A DNA stretch of 61,162 bases from positions 1 to 61,162 of IMG/VR virus record IMGVR_UViG_3300017648_000001; one strand, written 5' to 3'. Under the pieces are notes generated by a model. The model saw nothing but the letters and a program-made list of their open reading frames with translations. It made no database searches and was not told where the DNA came from. The translations under genes were made by a program, and so were the position numbers. Of the stretch, positions 16,685 to 58,825 are shown piece after piece. The stretch is from a virus. Taxonomy: Duplodnaviria > Caudoviricetes. Position 1 is the first letter of the stretch. Each line of letters starts with the position of its first letter.

Positions 16685-17394
16685 TGCCGTTACCAGCGAA
16701 TAATTTACTTTTCGGATTTGAGCCGAAGTTAACGAAAGAGCAGCGAATTTATGTCGATAGCATTTTCGACAATCAACTTACGATAGTAAACGCTAGGTCA
16801 GGAACCGGTAAGACAACGTTAGCAGTAGCTTGCGCCAAGATAATCGGCAAGCCGTTAGTATACGTATTCTCTCCGGTTGAAGAAAAGAAGATGGGATTCC
16901 GTCCTGGTACGCAAGCCGAAAAGGAAAGTGAGTACTTAACACCGTTAAAGGATGCGTTACTAGAGATCGGAGAGGTTCCGGAGAAAGTCGTCTATAACGA
17001 AGAGAATGCGGAAGCGTTAAAGGCCGGTCACGTTTGGGTATACCCGATGAGCCATATATTCGCTCGTGGTATCAACTTGAAAGATAAAACGGTCATCCTT
17101 GCGGAAAGTCAGAATTATACGCGCGGTGACATGAAGAAAATCCTAACTAGAATCCACAATAATTGCACCGTTATTATCGAAGGTCACACGGGGCAATGCG
17201 ATTTACCAGACGAAAGTAAAAGCGGCCTAGCTCCATATATAGAACATTTTAGGAATGAACCGTATTGCGAAGTTATTGAACTAACCAAAAATTTCCGTGG
17301 AAGGCTTGCACAAATCGCTCGTGATTATAACGTATGCAAGGACACGATATATCAAATTAGACGAGGGGATACTTATTCCGATATTTCGATATAG
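16684..17394 (+). CDS. phoH: PhoH-family ATPase with an atypical C-terminal extension
   Basis: ARSGTGKT, MGFRPG, ARG, ESQN and GHTGQCD motifs. Confidence 0.9.
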   Translation: MPLPANNLLFGFEPKLTKEQRIYVDSIFDNQLTIVNARSGTGKTTLAVACAKIIGKPLVYVFSPVEEKKMGFRPGTQAEKESEYLTPLKDALLEIGEVPEKVVYNEENAEALKAGHVWVYPMSHIFARGINLKDKTVILAESQNYTRGDMKKILTRIHNNCTVIIEGHTGQCDLPDESKSGLAPYIEHFRNEPYCEVIELTKNFRGRLAQIARDYNVCKDTIYQIRRGDTYSDISI

Positions 17395-17421
17395 ATGGAA
17401 ATTGCGAAGGAGTGAAAAGGT

Positions 17422-17730
17422 ATGAGAAATCAGTTTTATTACGAATTTAAAGAACAGGATTATTACGCTCTAATTGCAGTGAATGTTGAGAAATACGATT
17501 TAAAAACAAAACCTCACAAAAAAGCTACTGAATTATACGTCGGGGTTGTAGCTGGTGAAAGTGTGGAAGAAGTGCTAGAAGAAGGCGATCCAATCCAAGT
17601 AACAAAAGAATATGCATTTATGAAGTTTATATACGCTCATGAGTATGAATCCCAAACTGTTAAGGAGTTAATAAAGCAATTTGAGGAATCCGAAAATGAA
17701 GTTTTACTTATAGATAGCGCATTGATTTAA
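17422..17730 (+). CDS. Hypothetical protein (AT-rich cassette A)
   Basis: CG-poor sequence flanked by the conserved 24-bp sites. Confidence 0.7.
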   Translation: MRNQFYYEFKEQDYYALIAVNVEKYDLKTKPHKKATELYVGVVAGESVEEVLEEGDPIQVTKEYAFMKFIYAHEYESQTVKELIKQFEESENEVLLIDSALI

Positions 17731-17780
17731 TTCGAAATTCAAGTAAATAGCGCAACACCGACGAAAGGAGGACGCCACCC

Positions 17781-18398
17781 ATGCGCCATAAAACGAAGCT
17801 TATCGCCCTATCCGGCATTACCGCCGTATCCCTATTCGCTTACGTCGGCGGAGGCTATCACGAATCAAACGCGCCAAAAACGGAGTCACTAACGCCAGCC
17901 ATCGCCGAATCAGCGCACTACATCGACCATGCCGCGCTAATCACCGCCTTAACCGAAACGGAGGAGCTCGTCGGCTTAACCGGTACAGCAGCGAAAACGG
18001 TCGGTTATAATGACGCAAAATGGTACGGCGACAAAGCGTACGAACTAACCGTAAAGGGAACGTTTAAGATCGGCGTGGCAACCGATGACTTAGACGTCAG
18101 CATTAACGGCAATACGATAACCGTCCGATTTCCTCAGCCGAAGCTTTTAACGACAGATTTTCCGTTTGACATCGCTGACATACGCAAGGACGTCGGGCTG
18201 TTACGCGATGACTTGACCGAGGCGGAGTTACAAGCGTTATACGGCGAAGCGAGGACGGGAGCTATCGAAGACATCAAGCGCAATAGGCAAGCGTTTGAGC
18301 AGGCGGGCTCTTCCGTGGAGCGAAGTATTACTAAGATAATCGGAATGGTTACGGACGGCAATACGATAAAGGTTAAATTCGAGGAGGTAACGGAATGA
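17781..18398 (+). CDS. DUF4230-like membrane-anchored protein
   Basis: N-terminal TM helix; GTFKIGV...ITVRFPQPKLL pattern. Confidence 0.6.
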   Translation: MRHKTKLIALSGITAVSLFAYVGGGYHESNAPKTESLTPAIAESAHYIDHAALITALTETEELVGLTGTAAKTVGYNDAKWYGDKAYELTVKGTFKIGVATDDLDVSINGNTITVRFPQPKLLTTDFPFDIADIRKDVGLLRDDLTEAELQALYGEARTGAIEDIKRNRQAFEQAGSSVERSITKIIGMVTDGNTIKVKFEEVTE

Positions 18399-18598
18399 AA
18401 CGTAAATTTACGCTAGAGTTTGACGAAGCACCTCCGTTAGTATTCGTACAGAATCGCGTAGGGAATGACTTCGTATTGTATCAAGACGGAAAGGAAGTTC
18501 GCGGTATCCGTTCGCTACTTATTCGCGCAGGTTATGACGATGCTACTACGCATGAGGTCGAATATTTAACAGGGAAAACGAAGGAGGAAAACGAATGA
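18395..18598 (+). CDS. Hypothetical protein
   Basis: RBS and overlaps. Confidence 0.6.
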   Translation: MKRKFTLEFDEAPPLVFVQNRVGNDFVLYQDGKEVRGIRSLLIRAGYDDATTHEVEYLTGKTKEENE

Positions 18599-19209
18599 GA
18601 GTAAACGTTAAAATTAAACGCTTGAACGAAAACGCAGTAATTCCGAAATATGTACACGAATATGACAGCGGATTTGATCTCGTAGCATGCGACGATATTA
18701 TCATCGAACCGGGTGAGACGAAGCTGATTCCGACAGGGTTGGCGTTTGAATTACCGCCAGGATACGAGATCCAAATCCGACCTCGTTCGGGCATTACGTT
18801 AAAGACGAAACTACGCGTTCAGTTTGGCACTATCGATAGCCAGTATCGCGGAGAAGTCGGAGTTATTTGCGATAATATTTCGCCTATTGAATACGACATT
18901 GAACGTATTGAAAAACGTCACAATCTATTTATTCCGTATGATTATCGAATTCTAACGATAGGTGAAGATATTTACGAAGCTGACGGAAGTTACCCTCTAA
19001 ACACGTACATCATCCGCAAAGGAGATCGAATTGGCCAGGCAGTAATTAAGCCGGTTGAACAAGCGTTCTTTGTTGAGGTTGACGAACTTAGCGAAACGAC
19101 GCGCGGTCGAGGCGGATTCGGATCTAGCGGAGTTAAATCGGTACCTCAACTCGACTTAGATATCGACTCGGACGAAATTGTCGAAGCAATCCGGAAGTCT
19201 TACGAGTAA
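18595..19209 (+). CDS. dut: Trimeric dUTPase
   Basis: SGFDL, RPRSG, GTIDSQYRGE, GDRIGQ and RGRGGFGSSG motifs. Confidence 0.95.
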   Translation: MRVNVKIKRLNENAVIPKYVHEYDSGFDLVACDDIIIEPGETKLIPTGLAFELPPGYEIQIRPRSGITLKTKLRVQFGTIDSQYRGEVGVICDNISPIEYDIERIEKRHNLFIPYDYRILTIGEDIYEADGSYPLNTYIIRKGDRIGQAVIKPVEQAFFVEVDELSETTRGRGGFGSSGVKSVPQLDLDIDSDEIVEAIRKSYE

Positions 19210-19211
19210 TT

Positions 19212-19340
19212 ATGGACGCAGCAAAGGCGGCAATCACCGAAATCATCAAACGGCTGCGCGAAGATGGCGTAAGCAAGACGGTCATCGAGATCGACTTAAC
19301 GCATCATATTAAACGGGAGTTATCGAAGGAGGACGAATGA
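19212..19340 (+). CDS. Small hypothetical protein (42 aa)
   Basis: Fills the dut-thyX gap; weak RBS. Confidence 0.35.
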   Translation: MDAAKAAITEIIKRLREDGVSKTVIEIDLTHHIKRELSKEDE

Positions 19341-20141: not shown

Positions 20142-20142
20142 T

Positions 20143-20946: not shown

Positions 20947-21500
20947 TGACGGAAATTAAAATCGGTCTAACCGGCCGTCTTAGAAGCGGAAAGGATTCCG
21001 TCGCAGCCTACGCAAGCACCTTCTACGATTTCGCAACATATGCGTTCGGTGACGAATTGAAACGCGACTATCACGCGAAGAATCCGGATGTACCTCGTAC
21101 GCCGAAACCGAGAAAAGCGTATCAGGAACACGGACAGGCGGAGCGCTCCCGACGAGGCGACGACGTTTGGGTTGACGAGGTGTTCCGTACGATCGAATCA
21201 CACCGTTGGCCCGAGCGGATTATGATTACCGACGTAAGGCAGTCGAATGAGGTTGCGAGATTAAAGTCGGAGGGTTTCGTACTCATACGGATTACGGCTC
21301 CGGATCATGTCCGAATAGAAAGGGCGAAAGCTGCCGGAGATGCGTTTTCGGCGGAGGATTTGACGCATAGTACGGAGCTTGCCGTTGATGATTTCGAAGT
21401 AGATTTCGAGATTCATAACGATGGATCGCTCGTTGAGTTGTACGAAAAGTTTGATGCGGTGATGGCGGAATTGAATATTTCGAAGGAGGACGATATATGA
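20946..21500 (+). CDS. Deoxynucleoside monophosphate kinase
   Basis: GRLRSGKD P-loop; ITDVRQSNE and HSTE motifs. Confidence 0.85.
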   Translation: MTEIKIGLTGRLRSGKDSVAAYASTFYDFATYAFGDELKRDYHAKNPDVPRTPKPRKAYQEHGQAERSRRGDDVWVDEVFRTIESHRWPERIMITDVRQSNEVARLKSEGFVLIRITAPDHVRIERAKAAGDAFSAEDLTHSTELAVDDFEVDFEIHNDGSLVELYEKFDAVMAELNISKEDDI

Positions 21501-23356
21501 GCAACTTTAAATTCGTAGAATTATTCGCAGGCATCGGAGGGTTCCGTCAAGGACTCGACCAACTCGGAGGAGAATGCGTATTAGCTTCGGAGTGGGATAA
21601 ATTCGCTAAACAATCGTACACTATTCTTTACGGTGACGAACATCTTAACGATGACGTAACGAAAATTAACGAAAAAGACGTTCCTGACCACGACGTATTA
21701 GTATTCGGCATGCCTTGTCAAGCATTCTCGGTCGCAGGCAAGCGTTTAGGGTTCGAAGATATGCGCGGTACTTTATATTTCGAAGCTATGCGAATTGCTC
21801 GCGAAAAGAAACCGAAAGTATTGTGGATGGAAAACGTTAAGGGACTCGTAGGGCATGATTCCGGTAGGACGCTTAACGTAATGGCGCAAGCGATGTGCGA
21901 TATCGGCTACACGATAGATTTCGAAGTCCTAAATTCTAAATACTTCGGAGTTCCTCAGAATCGCGAGCGTATCTTCATGATTGGTATCCGTGACGATTTA
22001 ATCGAGCAGCAACCGTGGAAGATCGAAGGTACTAACGTAGTAGCGAAAGGTAAGCGTAGGATCTCCGAATTAGAGGGCGTTAAGACGTTTAACTTTGACT
22101 GGCCTGAACAAACGGAAGTAACGACGAGGTTGCGAGATATTTTAGAAACAAACGTAGACGAACGATATTACCTTAGCGAAGAGAAAACAGCGAAACTGGT
22201 GGCGCAGTTAGATCGCGAAAAGTACGATAAGGAAATTCCGGTGGTTATCGATCCTTCGCAACAGAAACGGGAGGGCAGAGCGAGAGTATACGTCGATGAA
22301 TCTCCGACAATTACGGCGAGGGATTACAAAGAACCGCGTATGATCGGCCACATCGATCTAAAAGGTCATGACGCAATCAAGCGCGTATATGATCCGTCCG
22401 CAATTTCGCCAACACTTACGACAATGGGCGGAGGACATCGTGAACCGAAGATAGCGGTACAAATGAATCGTAATGAAATCGGTAAGCAAACGGAAATCTC
22501 GCACTGCTTAATGGCGCGTGACTATAAAGGATTCGGCAATCAAGATATGACGGGGATAATCGAAGAAGTCCGACCAGTTTTAACGCCAGACCGTATCGAA
22601 AAGAGACAAAACGGACGTAGATTTAAAGAAGACGGAGAAGAATCGTTCACACTTACGGCACAGGATCGACATGGCGTGGCAGTCGGCACTAAGGAGGTTT
22701 TGTATGACGAGGAAAAGGAAAGAAACACCGTTGAAGTATTGCGAAAGCTGCGGGAAGAAGTTGGAGAGGAAGAGGTTGCCGAATGGAGATTTAGAGTACT
22801 TGATACACTTCAATCGTCGGAAGTATTGCAACAGAAACTGCATGTCGGAGTCATTCAAGGGCAGAGAATTGACGGACGATCCAAGTTGGTACACAGCCCA
22901 CAAACGAGCGAGATCAATAAAGAAAGCGGAAATGTGCGAGAAGTGTGGGTCGACAGAGAATGTGGATGTACACCACAAGGACGAGGACTGGAAGAACAAT
23001 TCGCTAGAGAATTTACAGTCATTATGCCGGAGTTGTCATATGAAAGAGCACAGACCGAAAAAGAGTTGCAAGATTTGTGGGAATCGACACAAGGGTCTGG
23101 GTTATTGCGAGAAGCATTATATAAGATTCAAGAAATATGGCGATCCGAATTACCTAAAACGAGGTACAGAATCAGAAAGTTAACGCCTAAAGAAACATTT
23201 AGACTCCAGGGCTTTCCCGATAGTGAGTTCGATAAGTTGGTCGAGGGTGGCATCTCGAATTCCCAACTTTATAAGCAAGCCGGTAACGCGGTAACGGTGA
23301 ATGTAATAAATGCGTTAGGCAGGCGTTTATTACCGTATTTAGGAGGCGATCAGTAA
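21497..23356 (+). CDS. C5-cytosine DNA methyltransferase with a large multi-TRD variable region
   Basis: LFAGIGG, PCQ, ENV, PQNRER, motif IX (RKLTPKETFRLQGF) and motif X (AGNAV). Confidence 0.95.
   Translation: MSNFKFVELFAGIGGFRQGLDQLGGECVLASEWDKFAKQSYTILYGDEHLNDDVTKINEKDVPDHDVLVFGMPCQAFSVAGKRLGFEDMRGTLYFEAMRIAREKKPKVLWMENVKGLVGHDSGRTLNVMAQAMCDIGYTIDFEVLNSKYFGVPQNRERIFMIGIRDDLIEQQPWKIEGTNVVAKGKRRISELEGVKTFNFDWPEQTEVTTRLRDILETNVDERYYLSEEKTAKLVAQLDREKYDKEIPVVIDPSQQKREGRARVYVDESPTITARDYKEPRMIGHIDLKGHDAIKRVYDPSAISPTLTTMGGGHREPKIAVQMNRNEIGKQTEISHCLMARDYKGFGNQDMTGIIEEVRPVLTPDRIEKRQNGRRFKEDGEESFTLTAQDRHGVAVGTKEVLYDEEKERNTVEVLRKLREEVGEEEVAEWRFRVLDTLQSSEVLQQKLHVGVIQGQRIDGRSKLVHSPQTSEINKESGNVREVWVDRECGCTPQGRGLEEQFAREFTVIMPELSYERAQTEKELQDLWESTQGSGLLREALYKIQEIWRSELPKTRYRIRKLTPKETFRLQGFPDSEFDKLVEGGISNSQLYKQAGNAVTVNVINALGRRLLPYLGGDQ
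22704..23183 (+). CDS. HNH/zinc-finger endonuclease nested in the +1 frame of the methyltransferase
   Basis: AAGGAGG (22691-22697) 6 nt before ATG; CEKC...DVHHKDEDWKNNSLENLQSLCRSCH HNH motif; additional CxxC motifs. Confidence 0.85.
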   Translation: MTRKRKETPLKYCESCGKKLERKRLPNGDLEYLIHFNRRKYCNRNCMSESFKGRELTDDPSWYTAHKRARSIKKAEMCEKCGSTENVDVHHKDEDWKNNSLENLQSLCRSCHMKEHRPKKSCKICGNRHKGLGYCEKHYIRFKKYGDPNYLKRGTESES

Positions 23357-26613: not shown

Positions 26614-26988
26614 GTGAAAGAAGGACAATGGACACATAGTTATTATGATGAAATATTCCAAAGTGGTGCTTATTTTGAAACTAAAGAACAAGCTGTTGAA
26701 GATGGGAAGAAGGAGTATGGAGAAGATTACAAACATTTTTATGTTGGTCAAATAAAAGATGTTTCTTTTGCTTTAACACCTAATGTTGATAGTGTTTTAG
26801 AGGGTATAGCACAAAATGTTTATGATGAAGTTGGAGAAGTTTCGGAGGATTATTTGAATCATATTGAAAAGGAACATTATGAAGCACTTGAAGATGAATT
26901 AAATAAAGTTATTTCAGTTTGGATGGATAAATACGGATATAAACCAGAGTTTTTCAAAGTTGTAAATGTCGAAAAAGTTACTGCATAG
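26614..26988 (+). CDS. Hypothetical protein (AT-rich cassette B)
   Basis: AAAGGAGG RBS; GTG start; flanked by the 24-bp sites. Confidence 0.7.
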   Translation: MKEGQWTHSYYDEIFQSGAYFETKEQAVEDGKKEYGEDYKHFYVGQIKDVSFALTPNVDSVLEGIAQNVYDEVGEVSEDYLNHIEKEHYEALEDELNKVISVWMDKYGYKPEFFKVVNVEKVTA

Positions 26989-27073
26989 TTCAAGGAAATA
27001 ACGAAATAAACCGCGCTGAGAAATCGGCGTTTTTTTAATTTGTTAAAACATTTTCGAAAAAGGGGACGATAAA

Positions 27074-28548: not shown

Positions 28549-28941
28549 ATGGCGAAGAAACTAAGCGAAAAACAATACGCTGCTATCCATTATCTAGCGT
28601 TACCTAAACGCGGAGGATTAACGTATGAACAAGTCGCTAAGGAAGTCGGTATATCCGATAGACAGATGCGTGACTGGCGTAAGGATGACGATTTTAACGA
28701 AGAGCTGAAACGTCAGATTATGCGCAATACATTAGATCGTCTACCCGAAGTAATGGCGTCTATACCCGACCATATTATTAAAGACGGTAACGCAGCAATG
28801 TTTAGAACGTTATTACAATCGCATGGAATGTTAACGGAGAAGGTCGATGTTAATACGACGAATAACGGATCAACCGATGTAGATTCGATGAAAGCTGAGA
28901 TCGAACGTATGAGAAAAGCGAGACATGACGAAGAGAAGTAG
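28549..28941 (+). CDS. Terminase small subunit (HTH type)
   Basis: HTH YEQVAKEVGISDRQMRDWRK; upstream of TerL. Confidence 0.75.
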   Translation: MAKKLSEKQYAAIHYLALPKRGGLTYEQVAKEVGISDRQMRDWRKDDDFNEELKRQIMRNTLDRLPEVMASIPDHIIKDGNAAMFRTLLQSHGMLTEKVDVNTTNNGSTDVDSMKAEIERMRKARHDEEK

Positions 28942-29478
28942 CGTTGAAGGTCGGAAGTTCGGTGCGTTTATATAGAAGAAACTCGGTGAGGTAGCGATAA
29001 AGGGATTCCGTTAGGTTCCGTTTAGGTTACGATAGATGCCGCCATTTATCAGCCACGTGCCTCTGACGCGTGACCCTCCGAACACTTTCGGCAAGACAGA
29101 CGCTAGCTTTATGCATTAATTACGGGAAATAATCGTAAGCAATTACGTATACATGCCGTTATATCAACGATGCATAAAGCGATGTATATCGTTATTATTT
29201 ACGTAACGATTAAACCGCGTCATATAAACGTTTGTTATCGAGATTAATACGTCAAAACTATATTTTACGTAATAATGTGCGTATGTTTATGCGGGGATAT
29301 GCAACCGTAAGTAGGGGCGTCATAGGGGGCGGGGTAGTCTTTTCCGGATTCCCGTCGCCAAGCGGATTTAACTCGCGGATATCAAAAAATCACTTTGACT
29401 TTACGAAGCCTACCGAATGCCTAACGGTGGGCTTTTCGTAATTACATAACGATAACTCAACGAAAGGAGGACGACAAT

Positions 29479-31230
29479 TTGGCGTGGGTAGACGGACGTT
29501 GGATTAGCGCAGCCGAACGTAAGGAACTAATCGATGTTTATACCGAATATCTCGACGTTATTGACGCCAAATACGGCGCAGACTTACCGGCTGACATTAT
29601 CGGAGACTACTTCGAACGAGCAACCGAACTAGAACGCCTCAAACGGATACATCGTTGCGACGGAAATCTCCTCGAATTCTCTATCGAATACTTTTCGGAT
29701 GCTAGAAATCCGGAGAATGACGGTAACTGGGACGGATTTGACGTCACGAAAGTCGAAGAAGCGCCGACATTCCACCGTGAGATAACCGACATTATGAACG
29801 TAGTATCAACGGAGCAAGTCAACGCTAAGATCGCTGCTGCAGCGCCCAGATCTCACGCCAAGTCGACCTACCTTTCGAAGGCATTTCCGGTTCATGAGAT
29901 CGTTTATCGCAAACGTAAATATACGATTATCATTTCGGAGACGCCGGCCGTATCGAAGGCGAATATGGAGTGGATTCGTAATCAGTTGAAGTATAACCGT
30001 AAGCTGCGCGCTGACTTCGGACCATTACTATCGCCGAAAGATCAGTCGAATATAACCGATAACTCCGAAGCGTTCATCGCATGGCATCCTGACGGTGATT
30101 CGCGTAAACAAATCGCATTAGTCGAAGCCGCATCGACAGGGCAAGCCCTTCGCGGACGAAACTGGAACGGAACACGTCCGGACTTAATCGTTTGCGATGA
30201 CCTCGAAGACGCTAGGCCAGGCGGTAATGCGTCAACGCCAGAACAACGTCAGAAACTTCGAGATTGGTTCTCTCAGACGGTAATGCCGTTAGGAGATCCG
30301 AAAGGGTTACGGACTGCTTTCGTATATATGGGCACCACCGTCCATTTCGAAGCCTTACTAATACAAGTTCTATATAATCGGTCGGACTTTACGTCGAAAG
30401 TTTACCGAGCGATAATCGATCAGCCGGAGCGCCAAGACTTATGGGAGCGATGCCGGCTTATTTACGTTGATCGCGAAAATCCGAACCGTCTGGCGGACGC
30501 ACGAAAGTTCTACGAAGATAACGAAGCGGAAATGCTCCGTGGATCTCGCGTATTGTGGCCCGAAGTTCAGCCATTATGGAAGCTAATGACGTGGAAATGG
30601 GATAACGGAAGCAAAGCGTTCAATACCGAGTATATGAATAATCCGGTCGATGAAGAGTCGATGATATTTAATCCGGAGTCCTTCACGTACTATGAAGGCG
30701 AAGATTTCGATCAACAAACGTACACAATTACGATGGGTGTCGACTTCGCGCTAGGAAAAGAGCGCGGGGACTATTCGGCGCTTACTGTGGTCGCTAAGCA
30801 CAAGCAGACTGGCGCTATGTACGTTGTCGACTCGTATTTAGAACGAATAAAACCCGATAAATACATCGATATCATTGTCGATAAAGTTTTAAAGTGGCAA
30901 CCAGACGTTATCGCAGCGGAATCACAGGCGGCGCAAGAGTTCTTCGTTGATACGCTAATGAACCGATTATCGCTCGAAGGGTATCCGTCATTTACTCGCG
31001 TTAAGAAAATAACGCATCGTTCTCGTAAGGAATTGCGTATAGAGGCGATGTTACCAGAAATAGAAAACGGAACAATTCGATTCAATAAGAAACATTCGCT
31101 ACTACTTGAACAATTTGAACGGTACGGACAAGGCGCACATGATGACGGACCTGACTCGCTAGAAATGGCGGTATCAGCTTCGAAAAGTGGTCAAGTAACC
31201 GTACGTTCACTATCGAAACGCTCACGATAA
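29479..31230 (+). CDS. terL: Terminase large subunit
   Basis: APRSHAKST Walker A, LIVCDD Walker B, MGVDFA nuclease motif, HDDGPD. Confidence 0.95.
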   Translation: MAWVDGRWISAAERKELIDVYTEYLDVIDAKYGADLPADIIGDYFERATELERLKRIHRCDGNLLEFSIEYFSDARNPENDGNWDGFDVTKVEEAPTFHREITDIMNVVSTEQVNAKIAAAAPRSHAKSTYLSKAFPVHEIVYRKRKYTIIISETPAVSKANMEWIRNQLKYNRKLRADFGPLLSPKDQSNITDNSEAFIAWHPDGDSRKQIALVEAASTGQALRGRNWNGTRPDLIVCDDLEDARPGGNASTPEQRQKLRDWFSQTVMPLGDPKGLRTAFVYMGTTVHFEALLIQVLYNRSDFTSKVYRAIIDQPERQDLWERCRLIYVDRENPNRLADARKFYEDNEAEMLRGSRVLWPEVQPLWKLMTWKWDNGSKAFNTEYMNNPVDEESMIFNPESFTYYEGEDFDQQTYTITMGVDFALGKERGDYSALTVVAKHKQTGAMYVVDSYLERIKPDKYIDIIVDKVLKWQPDVIAAESQAAQEFFVDTLMNRLSLEGYPSFTRVKKITHRSRKELRIEAMLPEIENGTIRFNKKHSLLLEQFERYGQGAHDDGPDSLEMAVSASKSGQVTVRSLSKRSR

Positions 31231-41860: not shown

Positions 41861-43951
41861 ATGGCGGATTATAAACCGGTAGGCGTACCGTTTGACCGTA
41901 CGTTTAGAAATACAATTAACGAAAACTTCGGAATATTAGACAATGCAGTAAATACGCAAAAGACGAGGGTTGACGATTTGATTGCGGGAACGGAACAACC
42001 GTCCGAAGTCGTGGATGCTCGTGGAGGGGCGCCAGTTTTACGTGATCGATTAGACGGCGTTGATGCGCAGTTGGCAGAAAAAGCGCCAAAGGAAAAAACT
42101 GAAAGTATCATAACTCCCGAAGAATTCGGGGCAAAAGGTGATGCTGTAACAGATGATACACAGGCATTTAAAGAATTAGCTTCCTATCTCCTGACAAATA
42201 ATACTGAAGTCCATTGGAAACCTACTGCAAAGTATGTATTAACAGAACCACTTTATTTTAAAAGTGGACTTCGCATGTATGGGCATGGTGCAGAAATTAT
42301 ATGGAGAGGTACACCGACTTTTGATAATTCAAGTCGATCAGTAGGTATCTTCAATGTAAATGGGGATGTTGAACAATCCAATAAATATGACGTAACCGCC
42401 ATTAATTTACAAGGAAATTTGGTGAACAACGAGTCTCACACTCTTCCGTATTATGGTTCAATAACTGTCCCTAACCATCCATATCAAGTTGGTGACTACA
42501 TTGTTATGGAGCTAGATACAGGCACACAAAATTCATTAGAACTAAAACCAAGAGATCATAAATTAGTAAAGATTGTTCGTGTTGAAGGTGACATTCTCTA
42601 TGTCGATTACACTAGTCCATACACTTTGAATATTAGTCAAATGACAAGCCCTAAAGTTTATAAGGCAACCCCTGCCGAAAACATCGTTTTAGATAATATC
42701 TTTATCAATGATGAAAGAGTTATCACAGAACCCAAAGATTGGATAAATTCCCACCCTAATGTAAGTGAGTTTATGAGTGGGGTTGTTTTAAGGTATTGCC
42801 GAAATGTAACAATCAACAAAGTTAAAGGTTATAATACTAAATTTCCCGTCTTTTATGTTATGTTGTGTTCACATTTACGATTCCAGGATGGGTATTTAGA
42901 TAAACCAGCAATTGTCGGACCCGGTGAAGGGTATTATACGCAGTTTAATAATTCACGTGATATTATCGTTGAAAATATTCAAGGTGAAAATACTAGACAT
43001 ATCGTTGATTTTACTGCTTCATCGAATGCTATTATTAAGAAATCCAAAGGTAATAAAAGTTACGGGATTGATTTTCAATCTCATGGTAACTATGAACACA
43101 ATATTGTATATGAAGATTGTATAGGTACTTGGAACTTTGCAAGTGGTGAATCTTTTGGAAATGCTGTTCGTGATTATAGTCTTATTAGATGTAAGGGTAT
43201 GTTGTTAGGTAAATACTCAAAAAATATCACTATTAAAGATTCTGAGTTTACTCTGAATAATCCTCTAACTAGCTTAAAAGCTGAAAACAGTTTAATTCAT
43301 TGGTATCTATCTTCCGGAACATATGAGGCTGATCCTAGAAGTGTGAAAAATGATCGTGTTATTCATTTCAAAAACTGTAACGTTAAAGTGTATAGTTCAA
43401 CATTCGCTAGCGCTATTATCAGTTACCATGACATTACGATTGAAGGCGGTCAACTAATTGATCTAAAGAAAGAAACTGAGAATTATAGAGGTGGATTTCT
43501 AATCGATCTTAGAGATGTTGATAAGTTCACAGTCATTAATTGCTCATTAGTTGATAATATTAGATTTAGGATTAATACATCCTCGGTCGATATTGATTTT
43601 GCGTTCGATAAAAATCACATGATATGTCATGGAGAATACTATCACTTTACAGCAAAGACAACATCAAACATGGCGATAAGAGCGAAAATAACAAATAATA
43701 CATTTATAAATGGTAAAACTGATGGAACGAGAATGCAATTACACAGATTACCTTCTAATGATGATCAAACGAACACGCAATCCATTGTATTGTTTAAAGA
43801 TAATATTGTTAAACAAGGAACGATTTTAGCACAAGTAACGAGTACAAAAGATGTTTACATTTCTCGTGACAATACGTTAATTGATTGTTCAGTTACTGTT
43901 GATTCGGGTATTTCTAAAATTGTTAACACTGATATCATTGTACCTGCATAA
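41861..43951 (+). CDS. Receptor-binding tailspike with a beta-helix (pectate-lyase-like) domain
   Basis: EVVDARG N-terminal anchor; FGAKGDAVTDDTQAF motif; AT-rich C-terminal cassette. Confidence 0.85.
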   Translation: MADYKPVGVPFDRTFRNTINENFGILDNAVNTQKTRVDDLIAGTEQPSEVVDARGGAPVLRDRLDGVDAQLAEKAPKEKTESIITPEEFGAKGDAVTDDTQAFKELASYLLTNNTEVHWKPTAKYVLTEPLYFKSGLRMYGHGAEIIWRGTPTFDNSSRSVGIFNVNGDVEQSNKYDVTAINLQGNLVNNESHTLPYYGSITVPNHPYQVGDYIVMELDTGTQNSLELKPRDHKLVKIVRVEGDILYVDYTSPYTLNISQMTSPKVYKATPAENIVLDNIFINDERVITEPKDWINSHPNVSEFMSGVVLRYCRNVTINKVKGYNTKFPVFYVMLCSHLRFQDGYLDKPAIVGPGEGYYTQFNNSRDIIVENIQGENTRHIVDFTASSNAIIKKSKGNKSYGIDFQSHGNYEHNIVYEDCIGTWNFASGESFGNAVRDYSLIRCKGMLLGKYSKNITIKDSEFTLNNPLTSLKAENSLIHWYLSSGTYEADPRSVKNDRVIHFKNCNVKVYSSTFASAIISYHDITIEGGQLIDLKKETENYRGGFLIDLRDVDKFTVINCSLVDNIRFRINTSSVDIDFAFDKNHMICHGEYYHFTAKTTSNMAIRAKITNNTFINGKTDGTRMQLHRLPSNDDQTNTQSIVLFKDNIVKQGTILAQVTSTKDVYISRDNTLIDCSVTVDSGISKIVNTDIIVPA

Positions 43952-44063
43952 AGTTGTATTTTGTAACTACTCATACTGTACAATTGGAGAAAATTCCGAA
44001 GTAACTAACGGAGCCCCTCGCGGCTCTTTTTTCGCATACAATTCTCGAAAGGAGGCGGTCACT

Positions 44064-47720: not shown

Positions 47721-47825
47721 TTATTGCGTAAGGCTTCGCATACATATTTTAACGTAGGCGTTGCGGTAAAGTTTGGTAGTGTTGTAAGATTATAGTTGGA
47801 CATAATTGATAGGAGGTTTTTACTA

Positions 47826-48452
47826 ATGAAAAAGTTTTTAAGTTTTTTAGTGGTTGGATTACTTTCGATGATGATGATGGCGGCATGTGCAACGGATTCA
47901 GCGACGGATGAACTCGAAAAGAACGATGATAATAAAGCGGAAGCTAAGACGGGCGATGAATCGACACCAACGGAAGAAGAGAGCGCCGAGTCCGAGAAGG
48001 AAGAAGAAGCGAAAGCCGAAGACGTTTGGACGTATTATGAAAACGCTAAGTGGTCAGATGATTACAACGGATTAAAAATGGAAATCCAAAAGGCGGTCGT
48101 TACCGATAAGGCTCCGACAGTTGAGGATGAAAACGCAAACGCTTCGGCGGTTGGCGTAAAGTTTAGAATGGAAAATACGACTGACGGTAAGTTTACGTTT
48201 TATCCGGACCAAGCGGTACTTGTAACGTCAACTGGCGAACAAATCGATATGCCTGACATGTTTGTTTCGGATAATCTCGGTGGCGAGATCGATAAAGGCG
48301 TAATTAAAGAAGGTAATATTATCTGGTATCTCGAACGCGGTGAAGCGGAATCTATCGAATGGATTAAGCTATCATTTAGCGGACATCAAGGACCGGAAGA
48401 TGATTTCGAATCCGAAATTAAAGAATACGAGATCGAATTACAATTGAAATAG
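47826..48452 (+). CDS. Lipoprotein (DUF4352-like)
   Basis: MKKFL signal with a MAAC lipobox; acidic linker; Ig-like domain. Confidence 0.8.
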   Translation: MKKFLSFLVVGLLSMMMMAACATDSATDELEKNDDNKAEAKTGDESTPTEEESAESEKEEEAKAEDVWTYYENAKWSDDYNGLKMEIQKAVVTDKAPTVEDENANASAVGVKFRMENTTDGKFTFYPDQAVLVTSTGEQIDMPDMFVSDNLGGEIDKGVIKEGNIIWYLERGEAESIEWIKLSFSGHQGPEDDFESEIKEYEIELQLK

Positions 48453-52689: not shown

Positions 52690-54237
52690 TTAAATTCTCG
52701 GATACAGTTGTATGACAAACTGGTCGCGTTTGGTCCATTCTTTTCGTCTGAGATATGTCGCCTTATCTAATACAGCTTTCAACAATCGATTCTTACTTTC
52801 GATATCTGCGAGATCATATTCGCTAATAACCGTTTGCAATTGAGGCAGTAATTCATTAACGCTATTTTGGCGAATCTCTTCTTTTTGAATCTCACTTGAA
52901 ATATTTTTAATTTCATCTTTTAATCCGTTGATGCGGTTTGTTAAATTCTGCTGGCGTTCTAAAAACGTATCTACATCGTAAACTCCTCGTTCAAGCAAAT
53001 CATGTAAATTGCTTTTCTGTTCTTCTAATTTTTCTACCTCTTCTTCCTTATTTTCAATTACCTTTTTCTTATATTGCGAATCGTCCCCGTTATTTAATAC
53101 TGGAGCTTCCGTCATAATTTCGAGTTCTGCAGCAAACTGCTTTAGTCCGTCGATAACACGCTGTTCAACTAAATTCAAAGCTGACCCTTTTTGCACGCCT
53201 TTACATCCTGGATTGTTACAGCGAATGACGTCGTTAGGACGATCTGGTCGAGGTTGATAAAGCATAGAATAACCGCATACTTCACACTTCAAGACACCGG
53301 CTAGCGGATTCGATAACGTTTTATCAGTGACGGTAGAATGGCGCCATCGCCCGGAGTGCGCTCGATTTGCGGCATCGAATAGTTCGCGTGACACAATCGG
53401 ATCGTGTGCGCCTTCTTTTATCGTCCATTTGTCGCGTGGCATTTTCTTTTTGGTATACTTCCCGTCTCTTTTCGAATAACGGACTTGTCCCCAAATGATG
53501 TTACCGATATAAACTTCGTTTTTAATAATTGACGTAATACTGCTCGGTGCCCAATTTTTACGTTTATTATTAGGAGGTTTTACGCCTAGACGGTCGAGTT
53601 CATTTGCGACGGCTTGTCTTCCGTGTCCGTCTCGCATCATTTCGAACATTTTCTTTACGACCCACGCGGTTTCTGGATCGGGGTATAGCCGTAAGTTTTC
53701 ATCACGTAAATATCCGTATGGCGGTTTTTTACTTATCGACTTACCTTCGCCTGCAGATGCGGCCCGACCTCGTTGCATACGGCGAGTTATTGCCTTTAAT
53801 TCTTCGCGTGCAACTAACGACTTAATTCCGAAGACCAACTCCCACGTTTCTGATTCCGGATCATATACTTCGGTAGGAGTTAGTATTTTTGCGCCTGAGT
53901 ACCGGAAAGCGCGATCGAGGAGTCCTTGATCGAGCATATCGCCACGTCCGAGACGATCGAGGTCCATTACAAGCACACCGTCTACGTTATTAACTTCTAT
54001 ATCTCGGAGCATCGCTTGTATTTCCGGACGTTCCGATATAGACTCTCCGGACACAACCTCTTCGTATATGTTTGCGATATTATGATTCTCTTTTTTAGCT
54101 ACCGCGAAAAGTGTGCGACGATGGCGATCGAGTGTGTCGTAAGTTTCTCCGTTTTCGCTCGCTTTCTTTTCTTCTTCAAGGTCTTTTCGACTTTTACGTA
54201 AATATATATTAATAGTAAGACCGTTAGGACGGCTCAT
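52690..54237 (-). CDS. Large serine recombinase (integrase)
   Basis: YLRKS catalytic Ser, DRLGR, PPYGY, zinc ribbon CEVC...CKG, coiled coil. Confidence 0.96.
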   Translation of the reverse strand: MSRPNGLTINIYLRKSRKDLEEEKKASENGETYDTLDRHRRTLFAVAKKENHNIANIYEEVVSGESISERPEIQAMLRDIEVNNVDGVLVMDLDRLGRGDMLDQGLLDRAFRYSGAKILTPTEVYDPESETWELVFGIKSLVAREELKAITRRMQRGRAASAGEGKSISKKPPYGYLRDENLRLYPDPETAWVVKKMFEMMRDGHGRQAVANELDRLGVKPPNNKRKNWAPSSITSIIKNEVYIGNIIWGQVRYSKRDGKYTKKKMPRDKWTIKEGAHDPIVSRELFDAANRAHSGRWRHSTVTDKTLSNPLAGVLKCEVCGYSMLYQPRPDRPNDVIRCNNPGCKGVQKGSALNLVEQRVIDGLKQFAAELEIMTEAPVLNNGDDSQYKKKVIENKEEEVEKLEEQKSNLHDLLERGVYDVDTFLERQQNLTNRINGLKDEIKNISSEIQKEEIRQNSVNELLPQLQTVISEYDLADIESKNRLLKAVLDKATYLRRKEWTKRDQFVIQLYPRI

Positions 54238-54299
54238 GTACAATCACCTCTACACGAATTATAACCGACTATACACAAAAATGTAAATTCGTTATTCTT

Positions 54300-54324
54300 G
54301 TCCGAAAATACAAGTCCTTGCGTC
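54300..54324 (+). promoter_or_regulatory. Phage-sigma promoter motif (copy 3)
   Basis: GTCCGAAA-N11-TGCGTC. Confidence 0.7.
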
Positions 54325-54347
54325 AATCTAAGTGAGGAGTGATTAAC

Positions 54348-54572: not shown

Positions 54573-54597
54573 GTCCGAAATTACGAAGTGATGCGTC
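54573..54597 (+). promoter_or_regulatory. Phage-sigma promoter motif (copy 4)
   Basis: GTCCGAAA-N11-TGCGTC. Confidence 0.7.
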
Positions 54598-55035: not shown

Positions 55036-55037
55036 GT

Positions 55038-55140
55038 GTGACGCGGACATCACTAGGTATGTGACGCTGACGTCAATTAGTGAGTGACGCGTACGTAACA
55101 CAAACTAGAACCAAGAACTAGAACCAATAAACAAGATTAA
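55038..55140. repeat. Probable replication origin: three 16-bp iterons plus 13-bp-period AT-rich repeats
   Basis: GTGACGC-type units at 55038, 55061 and 55084 (23-bp period); AACTAGAACCAA at 55103 and 55116. Confidence 0.7.
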
Positions 55141-55291
55141 AACATTACGCCTAAATAAAATACATTTAGTCGTTGTGGTTATTATCGTTAAGTAATTTAT
55201 CGGTAAAAACATAGTCGATTATACGTAAGTATAAGAGACAAAGTTTTTAATAAATAACTAAAGAAATTTACGAAGTAAGGGGGACATAGAA

Positions 55292-55498
55292 ATGGAACGG
55301 ATAACACAATTACAAAACTTAAACGACAAACTTTATAGAGTGGTTGAAATCCTTAAAAGAAAACAAAAAGACAAAGAATTATTAACAATTCAAGCTTATA
55401 TAGTTGAAGAAATTGCTGATGAAATGAGAAACCTCTTGAGTAATTCCGACAACGGTATAAGTCATATACACGATTATTCTGAATCTGATATGGATTAG
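55292..55498 (+). CDS. Hypothetical protein (AT-rich cassette C)
   Basis: RBS; composition; left flanking site. Confidence 0.6.
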   Translation: MERITQLQNLNDKLYRVVEILKRKQKDKELLTIQAYIVEEIADEMRNLLSNSDNGISHIHDYSESDMD

Positions 55499-55655
55499 TT
55501 AACTTTTTGCTTACCAACAAGCAGCGGAGCGAGCACGTAGTAATCTTAAACGCTAACGTCGATTCTGAGCCGAGTTTTAACGAAAATAGTCTACGTATAT
55601 CAAACGGAAATTATTAACGAATGTATTTATACCTAAACGAAAGGAGCACGATAGT

Positions 55656-56072
55656 ATGACGAGTAAAACGAAAGCTAGCGACTGGCGCAACCGTCCGATC
55701 GACGAATGGAATGTCGCCACCTTTACCGCCTATCTAACCGAACGCCACCTCGAAGTCTACGGAACGGAATATCTTCCGCCTGGACGAAACTGGCGCATGG
55801 AGCAAGGACTTATCGGCAACCTCATCGGCACTCGCGGAAAAACCCCTAAGCCGCGTAAATACGAGCCGGCGGTGGTCAAGGCGTTTATCGACGAATGTTT
55901 TCGAATCCATCGCACGAGTCCGCAGTATCCTACCGTAAATTTTACGTGGCTGTACAAATGGAAGACGGACGTGTGGGCGAGAGTTGTGGCGGAGGAACAA
56001 GCGAAGGCGAGGCGGTCAGAAGCCGTCGAATCGGTCGGTATGTCAGCGGAAGAGTTGAGCGATTGGTTATAG
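55656..56072 (+). CDS. Hypothetical replication-associated protein
   Basis: AAAGGAG RBS; lies between origin and loader. Confidence 0.7.
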   Translation: MTSKTKASDWRNRPIDEWNVATFTAYLTERHLEVYGTEYLPPGRNWRMEQGLIGNLIGTRGKTPKPRKYEPAVVKAFIDECFRIHRTSPQYPTVNFTWLYKWKTDVWARVVAEEQAKARRSEAVESVGMSAEELSDWL

Positions 56073-56113
56073 ACGTGGTAGACAAAAAAGCGAAGTAAAG
56101 GAGATGTGTAAAA

Positions 56114-56428
56114 ATGGACGATAAAAAACGTTTGAAAGAGATTAAAGAGTCATATTCAAATTGTATTGATATGGCTTTATCAGATGGTGAAACTTTACCA
56201 AGCTACGACATAGAGGTTGCTGATTTGAATTACCTTATTCAACAAGCAGAAAAACTAGAACAGCTAAAGGAAGTTATAGCTAGAAATTTAACTGCTTGGG
56301 ATACATCTAAAGATAAATCACAAGGGTTACTTCCAGAAGTATATTACGCAAATAAAATCTGGTACAAACGTTTAACTGGCGAGGCTTATGTTTTCGGTAA
56401 AGCAGTTAAAAAGTTCAATATAGAATAA
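56114..56428 (+). CDS. Hypothetical protein (AT-rich cassette D)
   Basis: RBS; composition; flanking sites. Confidence 0.65.
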   Translation: MDDKKRLKEIKESYSNCIDMALSDGETLPSYDIEVADLNYLIQQAEKLEQLKEVIARNLTAWDTSKDKSQGLLPEVYYANKIWYKRLTGEAYVFGKAVKKFNIE

Positions 56429-56475
56429 TTCGCTTTTCGCTAATATAACGAAATAAAACCGAAAGGAGTTTTCGA

Positions 56476-57300
56476 ATGAACAATCACGAAAGTAAATGCG
56501 TACTTGCCTCGCGATGCAAAGTGGCGGGAAGCGTACGATGCAACGCTCAATGTCCGTCATTCATCGCCATGCACGGCGCAAGTGGAATCGGAGGAAGATC
56601 GGCGGCAACTGGTCTACCGAAAGAGTATCGGCTTGTAACGCTCGAGAATTCGCCTGTAGAGACGGAACAACCGAAGATATACGAAACACTTGCGAAGTAT
56701 ATAACGACGTTTGAACGCCAATTTGAGGACGTCAGCGACCGTGTATATACGGAGTTAATTACGAAAGGTAATAGCGAAAAGGAAGCGCAAGATGGCGCGA
56801 GGGTCAAGTCGTTCTATTTCTTTTCCGAATCACCGGGAACAGGAAAAACGACTACGGCATCGGCATTAATTAACGAATATGTAATGGCGCATTATATCGG
56901 ATCATTAAAGCGAGGTAAGCAAGCGTTAGGCAGGCCGGCTTACTTCTTGGATTGTAACGATTGGCAGTCGTATTACAACGGATTCAACCGCAGCAACATT
57001 CCGAGAGATATCGCCGAAGTTAATAGTCGCGAATTCTATACGCAACTCGAACGATCGAAGAAGGCGCCATTTTTAGTTATCGACGATATTGCTGTCCGAG
57101 AGGTAACGCCAGGATTTCGCGGTGATTTACATTCGCTTATTAACTATCGTGTTACGGAGCAGTTGCCGACGATTTATACGTCCAATGTTCCGATGAAGGA
57201 TCTACCGCAAGTATTCGGAGAGTTCCGTTTATACGATAGAATGCGAGATCAATGCGCGGAATTAACATTTGGAGGGATATCGAAAAGGGGGCGACGTTGA
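56476..57300 (+). CDS. DnaC/IstB-like helicase loader ATPase
   Basis: PGTGKT, LVIDDI, TIYTSN and RLYDRM motifs. Confidence 0.9.
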   Translation: MNNHESKCVLASRCKVAGSVRCNAQCPSFIAMHGASGIGGRSAATGLPKEYRLVTLENSPVETEQPKIYETLAKYITTFERQFEDVSDRVYTELITKGNSEKEAQDGARVKSFYFFSESPGTGKTTTASALINEYVMAHYIGSLKRGKQALGRPAYFLDCNDWQSYYNGFNRSNIPRDIAEVNSREFYTQLERSKKAPFLVIDDIAVREVTPGFRGDLHSLINYRVTEQLPTIYTSNVPMKDLPQVFGEFRLYDRMRDQCAELTFGGISKRGRR

Positions 57301-57683
57301 TGACGTGGGATTTAAGTATTTATATAGAACCGAAATTATCGAAAGGTAGTTACGACGTTATAGTAGACGTTGTTGACTTAGAAGATATGGATACGCTAGA
57401 AAGTTTCAATTTTAATTTTATCGGTTGTGATAGAGAGCGGGCTTGTTACGCTGCATTCGAAGTTGTTAAAGAAAGGGTTAGTTGGTTGGGAGATATTAAA
57501 ATCAGCGTAGTATGTCCGACAATTGACCGAATACAAGCTATGTTGGAGGAAAAAGAGAAGTTGAAATACGAGGATTGGCGCGACTATTCTTTCTACTTAG
57601 ATGATATATCAAGCATTCTCATTGATAACGGTTATTTTTTAGATGGAGCGAGGTTATCAAGAGCCGCGGAGGTGTCCGAATGA
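57300..57683 (+). CDS. Hypothetical protein
   Basis: TGATG overlap; RBS. Confidence 0.6.
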   Translation: MTWDLSIYIEPKLSKGSYDVIVDVVDLEDMDTLESFNFNFIGCDRERACYAAFEVVKERVSWLGDIKISVVCPTIDRIQAMLEEKEKLKYEDWRDYSFYLDDISSILIDNGYFLDGARLSRAAEVSE

Positions 57684-58315
57684 CTAATAACAACGAAAAC
57701 GAAGACGAACGCATCATCGACGAAATTATCGAAGTCGACTTGCCTGCCACATTTGGCGACATCTGCGAAGTCGAAGGTTATGGCGTTAGAGTATTCCGCG
57801 TCTTCGGCTATCGTATCGAAAATTGTTTTACGGAGGAGCGCGCATGGGTCGACGTAGTTTACGAACTGATCGACGCGGTGAATGGCGAGTGGCTTGAAGC
57901 GGACGCAGATGACGTTGAACTATTGGCGGACGCTGAAGATGCCGACGTTTATATGCAGACGATAGATTACGATAATTATCCGAAGTCGTTTATGGAGACG
58001 GTGGGCTGGGGAACGGCTATAAATAACGAAGGGGAGGCGTTAGGAATGGCGAAAAAGGGCGAGGGCGAACGTAAACCAACAGCGAGGGAGTTAAGCGCGA
58101 AGTTGGCGGAGGAGCGGAAGAAGGCGAGGAAGGAGCGGAAAGAAAAGATAGATAACGAGTTGGACCGTTATAACTTCTTTAAGCGACAGTTTGATAGAAC
58201 GCAAGACAGACGTGATAAGGAAGCGATGGATACGGTAATGGCGGAGATTAAAAAATTGCGTAACGATGTAACCTATTCGGAGAGTAACGATAAAGATAGC
58301 GATGATAATAAATAA
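57680..58315 (+). CDS. Hypothetical protein
   Basis: GGAGG RBS; long ORF. Confidence 0.7.
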   Translation: MTNNNENEDERIIDEIIEVDLPATFGDICEVEGYGVRVFRVFGYRIENCFTEERAWVDVVYELIDAVNGEWLEADADDVELLADAEDADVYMQTIDYDNYPKSFMETVGWGTAINNEGEALGMAKKGEGERKPTARELSAKLAEERKKARKERKEKIDNELDRYNFFKRQFDRTQDRRDKEAMDTVMAEIKKLRNDVTYSESNDKDSDDNK

Positions 58316-58345
58316 TTGATACAAATAGCGACATAAAAGGAGAGG

Positions 58346-58777
58346 TTGAACTTGGAATATAACGAGGTTTATAAAGACTTATTTACAGTCGATAAAGAGT
58401 ATTTCCTTGCACATTGTATTAGTGCAGATGCAAAGATGGGTGCAGGGATAGCAGTTGAATTTAGAAAGAGATTTAAACTAGGTCAATTTCAAAAAGAGGT
58501 TGAGAAAACAGGGTTGATAGTTGGTAGTTGTGCAATGGTTGGAAGAGTGCTAAACCTTGTAACTAAAAGGGTTTATTGGGGTAAACCTACTTACGAAACA
58601 TTCACTAAAGCAGTCGAGGATATGAAAAGATTAGCTGTTAAACACGATATAAAAAAGATTGCTATGCCACAAATAGGTGCAGGGTTGGATAAATTAAGTT
58701 GGGCGAAAAATCGAGAAATCATTAAAGAAATTTTTTCAGATACAGATATAGAAATTCTTGTTTGTAGATTTAAGTAA
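58346..58777 (+). CDS. Macrodomain protein, TARG1/DarG-like ADP-ribosyl hydrolase (cassette E)
   Basis: LAHCISADAKMGAGIA, NLVTK and MPQIGAGLD motifs. Confidence 0.88.
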   Translation: MNLEYNEVYKDLFTVDKEYFLAHCISADAKMGAGIAVEFRKRFKLGQFQKEVEKTGLIVGSCAMVGRVLNLVTKRVYWGKPTYETFTKAVEDMKRLAVKHDIKKIAMPQIGAGLDKLSWAKNREIIKEIFSDTDIEILVCRFK

Positions 58778-58825
58778 CTGTGTCGCAGTTCGCATAAATT
58801 ACGAAATTAAAAGGAGGTTGAACGC

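Follow-up and report, generated by a model that had tools for sequence, protein, structure and literature searches.

The window analysed here, a stretch of 61,162 nucleotides (IMG/VR record IMGVR_UViG_3300017648_000001), holds a complete circular phage genome of 61,039 bp with a 123-bp direct terminal repeat. The element under study is a 30-bp sequence, here called the swap site, which brackets small accessory genes and the receptor-binding part of the tailspike. The genome is that of a temperate Bacillales siphophage and encodes AimR, a family A DNA polymerase, a ribonucleotide reductase, two methyltransferases, a siphovirus head and tail module, and a large serine integrase (52690-54243). 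Because its large terminase is 78% identical to those of the Bacillus subtilis phages 268TH007, 268TH002, and phi18-2, the host is, on this sequence evidence, probably a Bacillales bacterium. The mean CG content is 91 CG per kb, and 12 segments of the genome are CG-poor.

An initial annotation, made from the sequence alone, had proposed that a conserved site of about 24 bp flanks AT-rich cassettes, and had listed eleven copies. All eleven 24-mers are present at their positions. Nine of them are strong copies and two, at 55251 and 56072, are weak; the 24-bp core held, and the site proved longer, being a 30-bp dyad of 12-6-12 form. In the numbering used below, positions 10-12 are the first three bases of the 6-bp centre, here termed the address, and positions 13-14 are the next two. 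The sites and their cargo are as follows (aa, amino acids; RBS, ribosome-binding site; ORF, open reading frame):

17382-17411, + strand: accessory-left site, address GAT; overlaps the PhoH stop codon and is followed by an RBS
17422-17730, + strand: cassette A cargo, a 102-aa protein (phrog_3930), GC 33%
17728-17757, + strand: accessory-right site, address CAA; its first three bases are the cassette A stop codon
26564-26593, + strand: accessory-left site of cassette B, address GAT, in a slot that no close relative covers
26614-26988, + strand: cassette B cargo, a 124-aa protein (phrog_1672), GC 31%
26979-27008, + strand: accessory-right site of cassette B, address CAA; includes the cassette B stop codon
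41861-43951, + strand: tailspike gene, a conserved anchor (about aa 1-67) joined at the site to an AT-rich domain
42061-42090, + strand: tail-left site, address GGC, in frame within the tailspike gene
43974-44003, + strand: tail-right site, address GGA, after the tailspike gene; followed by a terminator-like hairpin at 44010-44027
55248-55277, + strand: weak, unconfirmed site-like sequence before the CG-poor ORF C (55292-55498)
56068-56097, + strand: degenerate left site of slot D, one base short, its centre starting GAC
56114-56428, + strand: cassette D cargo, a 104-aa protein, GC 32%
56426-56455, + strand: accessory-right site of slot D, address CGC
58306-58335, + strand: accessory-left site of the macrodomain slot, address GAT, as in 4/4 genomes at this slot
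58346-58777, + strand: macrodomain cargo (Pfam Macro; PADLOC DarG model, E 1e-15), GC 34%
58779-58808, + strand: accessory-right site of the macrodomain slot, address CGC; followed by the DnaB RBS

The cargo consists of promoterless single genes in one orientation, and tandem arrays were found only in relatives. The macrodomain protein (58346-58777) possibly acts in counter-defence against DNA ADP-ribosylating toxins. An explanation of the sites as promoters or terminators gained nothing between 41800 and 61039, where counts were at chance level.

The profile of the site was established with a 30-bp matrix trained on 45 sites, among them the nine of the window. These nine score 21.9-34.4, the best unrelated match 11.8, the element at 55251 8.7, and that at 56071 0.8. 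The left sites of C and D are therefore weak, and the bracketing of cassette C that had been proposed is not confirmed, as 55251 also has no partner; relatives diverge at 55254, which is the start of this weak element and not its centre. Among the 45 sites, T occupies position -3 in 41 and A position +3 in 36, which adds three bases on each side of the core, and the consensus is close to TRA-TGCGCARTT-(6)-AAWWGCGAA-NNA. When each site was left out in turn, ten sites ranked 3-28 among 122,032 positions and 56071/2 ranked 967. Since the sites had first been picked by likeness, two outside tests were run. In one, a matrix was trained on 18 tail-gene sites of other genomes with the centre masked (the window matrix had originally turned up two of these, and the others came from protein homology and inspection by eye), and it placed the nine window sites at ranks 1, 2, 3, 4, 7, 20, 50, 88, and 153 of 122,032, with 56071 at 560 and 55251 at 1425. 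In the other, a matrix from the window alone was applied to four relatives (G001, G002, L064, and L020; labels beginning with G or L are our own handles), where 7/7 matches scoring at least 18, and 12/20 scoring at least 12, lie at a switch between CG-rich and CG-poor DNA, which has a background of 3.1%.

The same holds in the window. Each of the nine strong sites is no more than 90 bp from the edge of one of the 12 CG-poor segments (background 6.8%), which bears out the enrichment at cassette edges, and all nine score best on the + strand, so that the copies are in direct orientation as first described. Six of the 12 segments have no site: two in the AimR region, the methyltransferase insert, and three short ones. 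The two arms are complementary at 5.1 of 9 positions, compared with 2.2 for random sequence, yet complementarity is no higher within a site than after shuffling of the partners. A fold test of 28 sites gave 59.2% paired cells (59.2 when shuffled) and a covariation of 0.127 (0.124 when shuffled), and fold energies of 14 sites ranged from 0 to -2.6 kcal/mol. No structured RNA element was detected, with 0 Rfam matches in the window and no covarying stem in the 28 sites. A dyad of this kind is what would be expected of two protein-bound half-sites and not of a hairpin.

One copy lies inside a gene. The initial annotation had included both tailspike sites, 42064 and 43977, and both are strong copies that flank the receptor-binding part. 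The site at 42064 is read in frame as D-A-Q-L-A-E-K-A at the end of the conserved anchor, and the AT-rich domain beyond it has a weak pectate-lyase-like match from aa 88. Protein searches with the anchor recovered 9 viral loci (7 distinct) and 13 loci in 12/401 genomes; a motif of the A-x-L-A type follows the anchor in 5/7 distinct viral loci and 10/13 genome loci. The weak anchor homologues in PG1 and PK5.1 have no tail site. Codon usage was compared in 19 tail genes (the 15 motif-bearing homologues together with those of the window, G001, G002, and G084), which are related and not independent draws. The Leu codon of the site is TTG in 18/18 of them versus 21/72 Leu codons in the upstream anchor; the Ala before it is GCG in 17/17 versus 38/108, and the Gln is CAG in 13/13 versus 35/64. 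By contrast, the anchor stretch E-V-V-D-A-R keeps its peptide while its third codon positions vary freely. In a scan of viral contigs for D-A-Q-(L/F)-A-(E/D)-K-A in any coding, 53 loci were found, 34 of them with Phe, and TTG was used in 4/4 tail-type genes versus 1/15 of the other Leu matches. By the measure of these codons, the tailspike site is kept at the DNA level.

What follows the site differs between phages. Among 12 tailspikes, the 60 residues before the site are alike in 35/66 pairs and anything after it in 2/66. The tips include beta-helix, pectate-lyase-like, and GDSL domains, and GC or CG content usually falls at the site. In G001 and G1140, tips of one domain family (35% identity over 433 aa) are borne on unrelated anchors.

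The first three bases of the centre follow the slot. Positions 10-12 are GGC in 12/12 tail-left sites, GGA in 12/12 tail-right sites, GAT in 8/9 accessory-left sites, and CAA, CGC, or CGA in 11/11 accessory-right sites. The PhoH slot of G002 and the cassette A homologue of G1143 have GAT on their left, as cassette A does in the window. Adjusted mutual information with slot class is 0.88 for positions 10-12 and 0.14 for positions 13-14; without the tail-left class the values are 0.81 and 0.12. Because some accessory sites had been found with the centre included, the tail-right class offers the cleanest test of the address. Here only the arms of accessory sites were used, with the centre masked, and the best match was taken within 1.5 kb after the tailspike stop. 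In 10/12 of the long-enough loci (12 of 20) the best centre starts with GGA, and in the other 2 a GGA site is second best; several sites start with the stop codon, no convincing match came from 3 short loci, and 5 loci hold no tailspike stop. Positions 13-15 take nine forms among the 12 tail-right loci, pairwise identity at position 13 is 0.23, and exact identity through the centre has a median of 5 bp between tail-right pairs.

Two other explanations meet this evidence differently. The sites could be boundary sequences conserved for homology-driven or annealing recombination by RecA or a phage annealing protein, and kept since the recombinants are viable. For E. coli phages, conserved motifs of 20-95 nt on either side of receptor-binding domains are presented as hotspots of homologous recombination, in the portion of the source available to us (PMC10408124). 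Tail-left sites share up to 20 identical bases, adjoining stop codons and RBSs add further shared sequence, and neither the PF00589 search nor a comparison of shared proteins found a recombinase. Boundary homology would nevertheless leave unexplained the dyad symmetry and the use of one arm consensus at unrelated intergenic and in-gene slots. It also fits poorly with a variable position 13 inside an otherwise kept element and with the median of 5 exact bases shared by tail-right pairs, and we regard it as unlikely. Alternatively, the dyads could be operators of a dimeric DNA-binding regulator, with their placement at module edges secondary. Palindromic arms with a free centre beside RBSs do look operator-like, and the SPbeta repressor, a protein of the tyrosine-recombinase type, acts at repeated elements, according to the part of the source consulted (PMC10516654). 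An operator role is very improbable, however, as one copy is read in frame, 200 bp into a late structural gene, copies stand on both sides of single genes with composition and homology switching at the site, the slot-specific triplet would have no regulatory use, and 268TH007, which carries AimR, lacks paired sites.

Comparison with relatives revealed that cargo changes between the same sites. At the PhoH slot, the 102-aa gene of the window stands where G002 has an unrelated 39-codon ORF, and both sites are kept, with first centre bases GAT and CAA. In the slot before DnaB, the macrodomain gene of the window is replaced by a single other gene in G002, by two cassettes separated by a third site in G001, and by three small genes in L064. 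Around this slot, identity between G002 and L064 is 90-97%. Their left sites agree up to and including position 12 and diverge after it, and in their right sites the left arm differs and identity runs from position 10 onward; both breakpoints thus bracket positions 10-12. A crossover in the overlap with identity beside the cut is seen in this one close pair and in the class statistics, at positions 10-12 and not 13-14, with slot D and the right site of the macrodomain slot as exceptions. Taken together, the swap sites are very probably points of exchange between phages.

The initial annotation had suggested that relatives might hold either a single empty site or different cargo with breakpoints in the motif. 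The latter was found; a single empty site was not seen in any of the three close relatives (G001, G002, and L064). Neither were excised or empty forms seen at the sites in contigs from two runs of one sample, possibly the source of the window, in which rare forms could escape. The search for donors was also negative: in the regions of Goe8, phage G, and TP21T that contain cargo homologues, no sites accompany those genes, and scans with the 27074 protein and cassette B returned no related viral loci.

These results bear directly on the integron- or pdif-like mode that had been proposed, in which genes would leave as circles through flanking sites, insert elsewhere, and build tandem arrays. Several features agree with it: single genes that lack a promoter and are closely enclosed by sites between stop codon and RBS, a middle site in the tandem cassettes of G001 and of the cultured phage Mgbh1, a variable number of genes in the macrodomain slot, and the exchange of CGC for CAA before DnaB, which implies some cross-address event. 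Against it, the left centre is unlike the right one in each of the five bracketed slots, a single empty site was seen in no relative, the sites carry no folding signal, the genome has no integrase gene by PF00589, and loss of the tail cassette by excision would strip the anchor of its receptor-binding domain. Gain and loss of this kind is accordingly improbable, and the slot pattern fits replacement between matched addresses better than circles gained or lost. Membership in the known classes failed as well. An integron would have IntI, which the PF00589 search of the genome did not find, and folded attC sites, which are lacking; only the promoterless, co-oriented cassettes are shared. With pdif/Xer modules the site shares two 12-bp inverted arms and a 6-bp centre flanking cargo. 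Its flanking copies, however, are direct and not mostly opposite, and three Bacillales dif-like sequences score -3 to -23 on the arm matrix, compared with 19-27.5 for the sites, with 7-12 of 22 identities to the arms versus 7.5 +/- 1.8 for random sequence. A XerD-arm motif occurs 43 times in the window (49 expected), with no exact match. The integron- or pdif-like interpretation is thus not upheld, given the unlike left and right centres, the failure to see an empty site in any relative, the lack of arm covariation, and arms unlike dif.

It is instead rather probable that swap sites are core sites of a tyrosine-type site-specific recombinase supplied in trans. Tyrosine recombinases generally swap three bases at the left edge of the centre, which matches an address at positions 10-12 and freedom at 13-14. 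Inverted arms around an overlap of 6-8 bp form the core-site layout of these enzymes, as far as the consulted parts of two sources go (PMC5357621, PMC10250229), and the swap site falls within the usual range of 11-13 bp arms and a 6-8 bp overlap. In the integration of CTX and VGJ phages, homology on one side beside the cleavage point sets specificity and the junction is resolved by replication or repair (PMC4246890, seen in part), and integrons use a 3-base microhomology at the crossover with replicative resolution (PMC4792948, likewise in part). The data establish the sites, their placement, the constraint on their DNA, the triplet particular to each slot, and the change of cargo; from these we infer a recombinase, its class, the order of strand exchange, and supply in trans. 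A recombinase from the host or another element would swap DNA between the left and right sites of two phage genomes, with each arm binding one subunit. Cleavage at the left edge of the centre would free positions 10-12, which would have to pair with the partner and so act as the address: GGC for tail left, GGA for tail right, GAT/GAA/GAC for accessory left, and CAA/CGC/CGA for accessory right. Since no match is required at positions 13-14, the second exchange of strands is probably omitted or tolerates mismatch, and by analogy with CTX/VGJ and integron reactions the junction is probably resolved by replication or a resolvase. Because left and right addresses differ, excision would be disfavoured and replacement favoured. 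Two crossovers with a donor phage would then replace the slot and preserve cargo orientation, RBS, and the tailspike reading frame.

A serine recombinase, either the phage integrase (52690-54243) or a resolvase, could in principle use the sites. The genome does encode a large serine recombinase, and the two CG dinucleotides of the site have a spacing that we take to resemble resolvase crossover sites. Serine recombinases, however, require the central two bases to match. Here position 13 varies, so that a match of the central dinucleotide (12-13) is not obtained, and relatives with the same sites carry tyrosine integrases; for both reasons this use of the sites is extremely unlikely.

The search for the enzyme covered several candidates. 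The initial annotation had held that the phage encodes no tyrosine recombinase and that the enzyme would be host-derived or unrecognised. A trans-acting tyrosine-type recombinase remains the best reading, but the host proteins CodV/RipX are unlikely, as the arms are about as unlike Bacillales dif as random DNA. Look-ups of two window genes, 47796-48449 (a DUF4352-type lipoprotein) and 57252-57680 (a weak RNase H-like fold), gave no recombinase. In many relatives a tyrosine recombinase of about 180 aa is encoded on the opposite strand before the large terminase (268TH007, KLEB27-1, G149, G110, G360, G084, and G1153, some of them site-poor); none lies at 28941-29479 in the window. Relatives of this protein occur in 242/381 Bacillales genomes, which makes supply in trans possible. 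In G084 and in L227 one site lies close to a gene of this type; these two isolated cases were not counted as support.

A number of observations weigh against a dedicated, addressed recombinase. The PF00589 search of the complete genome gave zero matches, as had been claimed, and the proteins common to site-bearing phages are tail and common modules only, with no enzyme candidate. The 180-aa protein was rejected as an enzyme acting in cis, being absent from the window, Mgbh1, G1140 (96% complete), and G1142 (90%), and the flanks of 34 of its genes hold 3 sites, compared with 2 control matches, which is no enrichment. The closest cultured relatives by terminase (268TH007, phi18-2, and KLEB27-1) lack paired sites, and 5/20 distinct anchor homologues lack the in-frame motif (L112, L115, L174, L179, and L180). 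Exact matches between tail-left sites extend to 20 bp (median 8.5), a length sufficient for some annealing pathways, and the GGC address of these sites is also under a Leu-Ala coding constraint. The right site of the macrodomain slot is CGC in the window and CAA in three relatives, so addresses are not absolute. Slot D is occupied in relatives by CG-rich genes without sites, and this block was therefore gained or lost with breakpoints outside the sites. Moreover, between the window and relatives of 80-85% identity, similarity fades 40-70 bp before the accessory left sites, and the close relatives number three, all of them fragments and possibly from related samples.

Further genomic analysis found the sites in other phages. 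G1143, an unrelated phage of 35% GC, carries the tail-left and tail-right sites as well as a GAT site that precedes a cassette A homologue of 48% identity. Tail sites are present in G1140, G1142, G1146, G1149, G1150, L224, and prophages of G084 and G149. Among cultured phages, Mgbh1 has three accessory sites, in tandem cassettes with a middle site, and Lietuvens has two, flanking one small gene. Three viral contigs of 28-30% GC carry single strong copies at gene junctions. A small phage contig of 28% GC (L228, 6093-6116, - strand) has a strong GAT site just after the stop of a GDSL-domain tail-like gene, for which no in-frame partner was found. In the runs that bear the window, a second phage contig matches 41995-42051 and runs on into a GGC tail site; site-bearing phages thus co-occur. 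No paired sites were found in prophage regions of G390, G113, G333, G360, G382, G183, G223, and G110. A strict site pattern matched 7 loci in viral contigs, 4 in the expected context (L224, L227, L228, and L229) and 3 judged chance, and none in 301 host genomes, a test that is insensitive because the pattern misses the true tail sites of G149. TP21T (L184, 36900-41150) has, by eye, a dyad of the AAAA-N6-TTT type repeated between small accessory genes, which is a different site family. There is a somewhat less than even chance that a single address-coded exchange network of 30-bp sites spans unrelated Bacillota phage families, with a common host-cell recombinase and a three-base code for tail tips and for accessory or counter-defence genes.

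Known systems share parts of this arrangement. In the Z/fun lysogenic-conversion region of P2-like coliphages, inverted repeats reportedly bound a refilled accessory slot, and this is ascribed to site-specific recombination. That case is said to concern one slot in one phage family, and we know of no address code or in-frame tail use there. In Gin/Cin tail-fibre inversion and the R64 shufflon, the recombination site lies in frame inside an adhesin gene and the C-terminal part is switched. Those systems invert segments within one genome and have a linked recombinase, unlike the direct sites, single tip, and lack of a linked enzyme seen here; an invertible tail fibre or shufflon was rejected, as there is no invertase or Rci-type gene beside the tail.

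The remaining comparisons draw on sources of which a part was available. The pdif/Xer modules of Acinetobacter plasmids (PMC7399989) likewise place cargo between two-armed sites with a 6-bp centre and an enzyme in trans, but here the arms are not dif-like, orientation is direct, and there are a 3-base address, an in-frame copy, and a setting in phage genomes. The phages CTX and VGJ, of the IMEX type (PMC4246890, PMC5357621), also rely on one-sided homology in a 6-bp centre, and replicative resolution is transferred to the swap sites by analogy; there the whole genome integrates at dif via XerC, whereas here the replacement affects internal modules and the site does not resemble dif. Integrons (PMC4792948) have promoterless single-gene units, tandem arrays, and a short crossover microhomology in common with the swap sites, which differ in having no IntI or folded attC, arms conserved in sequence, unlike flanking addresses, and several separate slots. 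Heterospecific lox-type cassette exchange (PMC10250229) uses the same arms with different centres to favour replacement over excision, but as a laboratory method with a known enzyme and a fully matched 8-bp spacer, in place of a natural system with a 3-base address. Motifs flanking tailspikes in E. coli and Klebsiella phages (PMC10408124; bioRxiv 10.64898/2026.05.12.724579) also lie at the border of anchor and receptor domain and after the gene, across genera. They are described as homology hotspots of 20-95 nt, and for them the accessible text mentions no dyad, address, or recombinase, nor the same element at accessory genes; in that of the bioRxiv paper the terms 'palindrom' and 'recombinase' have 0 occurrences. 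The available parts of PMC3091744 and PMC8138268 contain nothing on such sites. The full-text literature searched (main texts, mostly outside subscription journals) holds no description of the 30-bp site or of natural addressed exchange in phages. The in-frame tailspike joint and the 3-base address common to phage families are newly described here.

Other features of the genome and its relatives were noted. The AimR (arbitrium) region (541-2610) is CG-poor and resembles cargo, and as it has no site it would have been acquired by another route. The C5 methyltransferase (21497-23356) is long (619 aa), with a CG-poorer insert (22991-23150) and no site; possibly it has several specificities and a target-recognition domain acquired by exchange. 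A separate motif, GTCCGAAA-N11-TGCGTC, occurs in four copies on the + strand upstream of genes (2473-2497, 16431-16455, 54300-54324, and 54573-54597; 0.01 expected by chance), and is likely to be a promoter or operator of the phage that has no relation to the swap sites. An unannotated 143-aa protein (57252-57683) weakly matches RNase H-like structures (TM 0.55-0.59, from a model of low confidence), and relatives have another gene there. The serine integrase (52690-54243) stands in place of the tyrosine integrase of the close relatives G001, G002, and L064 (L036 3244-4212), with no flanking swap site. The tape-measure gene of G002 (L058, about 5900-7300) is split by a CG-poor insert with an endonuclease-like ORF, probably a self-splicing intron, and has no swap site at the insert ends.

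The manner in which phages of different families trade receptor-binding domains and accessory genes without extended homology is still unsettled, and recombination of the illegitimate or homologous kind is usually invoked. A defined 30-bp site that bears a three-base address opens the question to direct experiment, predicts exactly where modules begin and end in the genomes of Bacillota phages, and accounts for a linker that recurs in tailspikes. If the network is real, the Q-L-A-E/D linker of the tailspike would be the translation of a recombination site, and modules would move between phages that share no other homology. The sites are present in a cultured phage, Mgbh1, and the enzyme, if found, would be a recombinase that exchanges cassettes in nature by means of short, orthogonal addresses.

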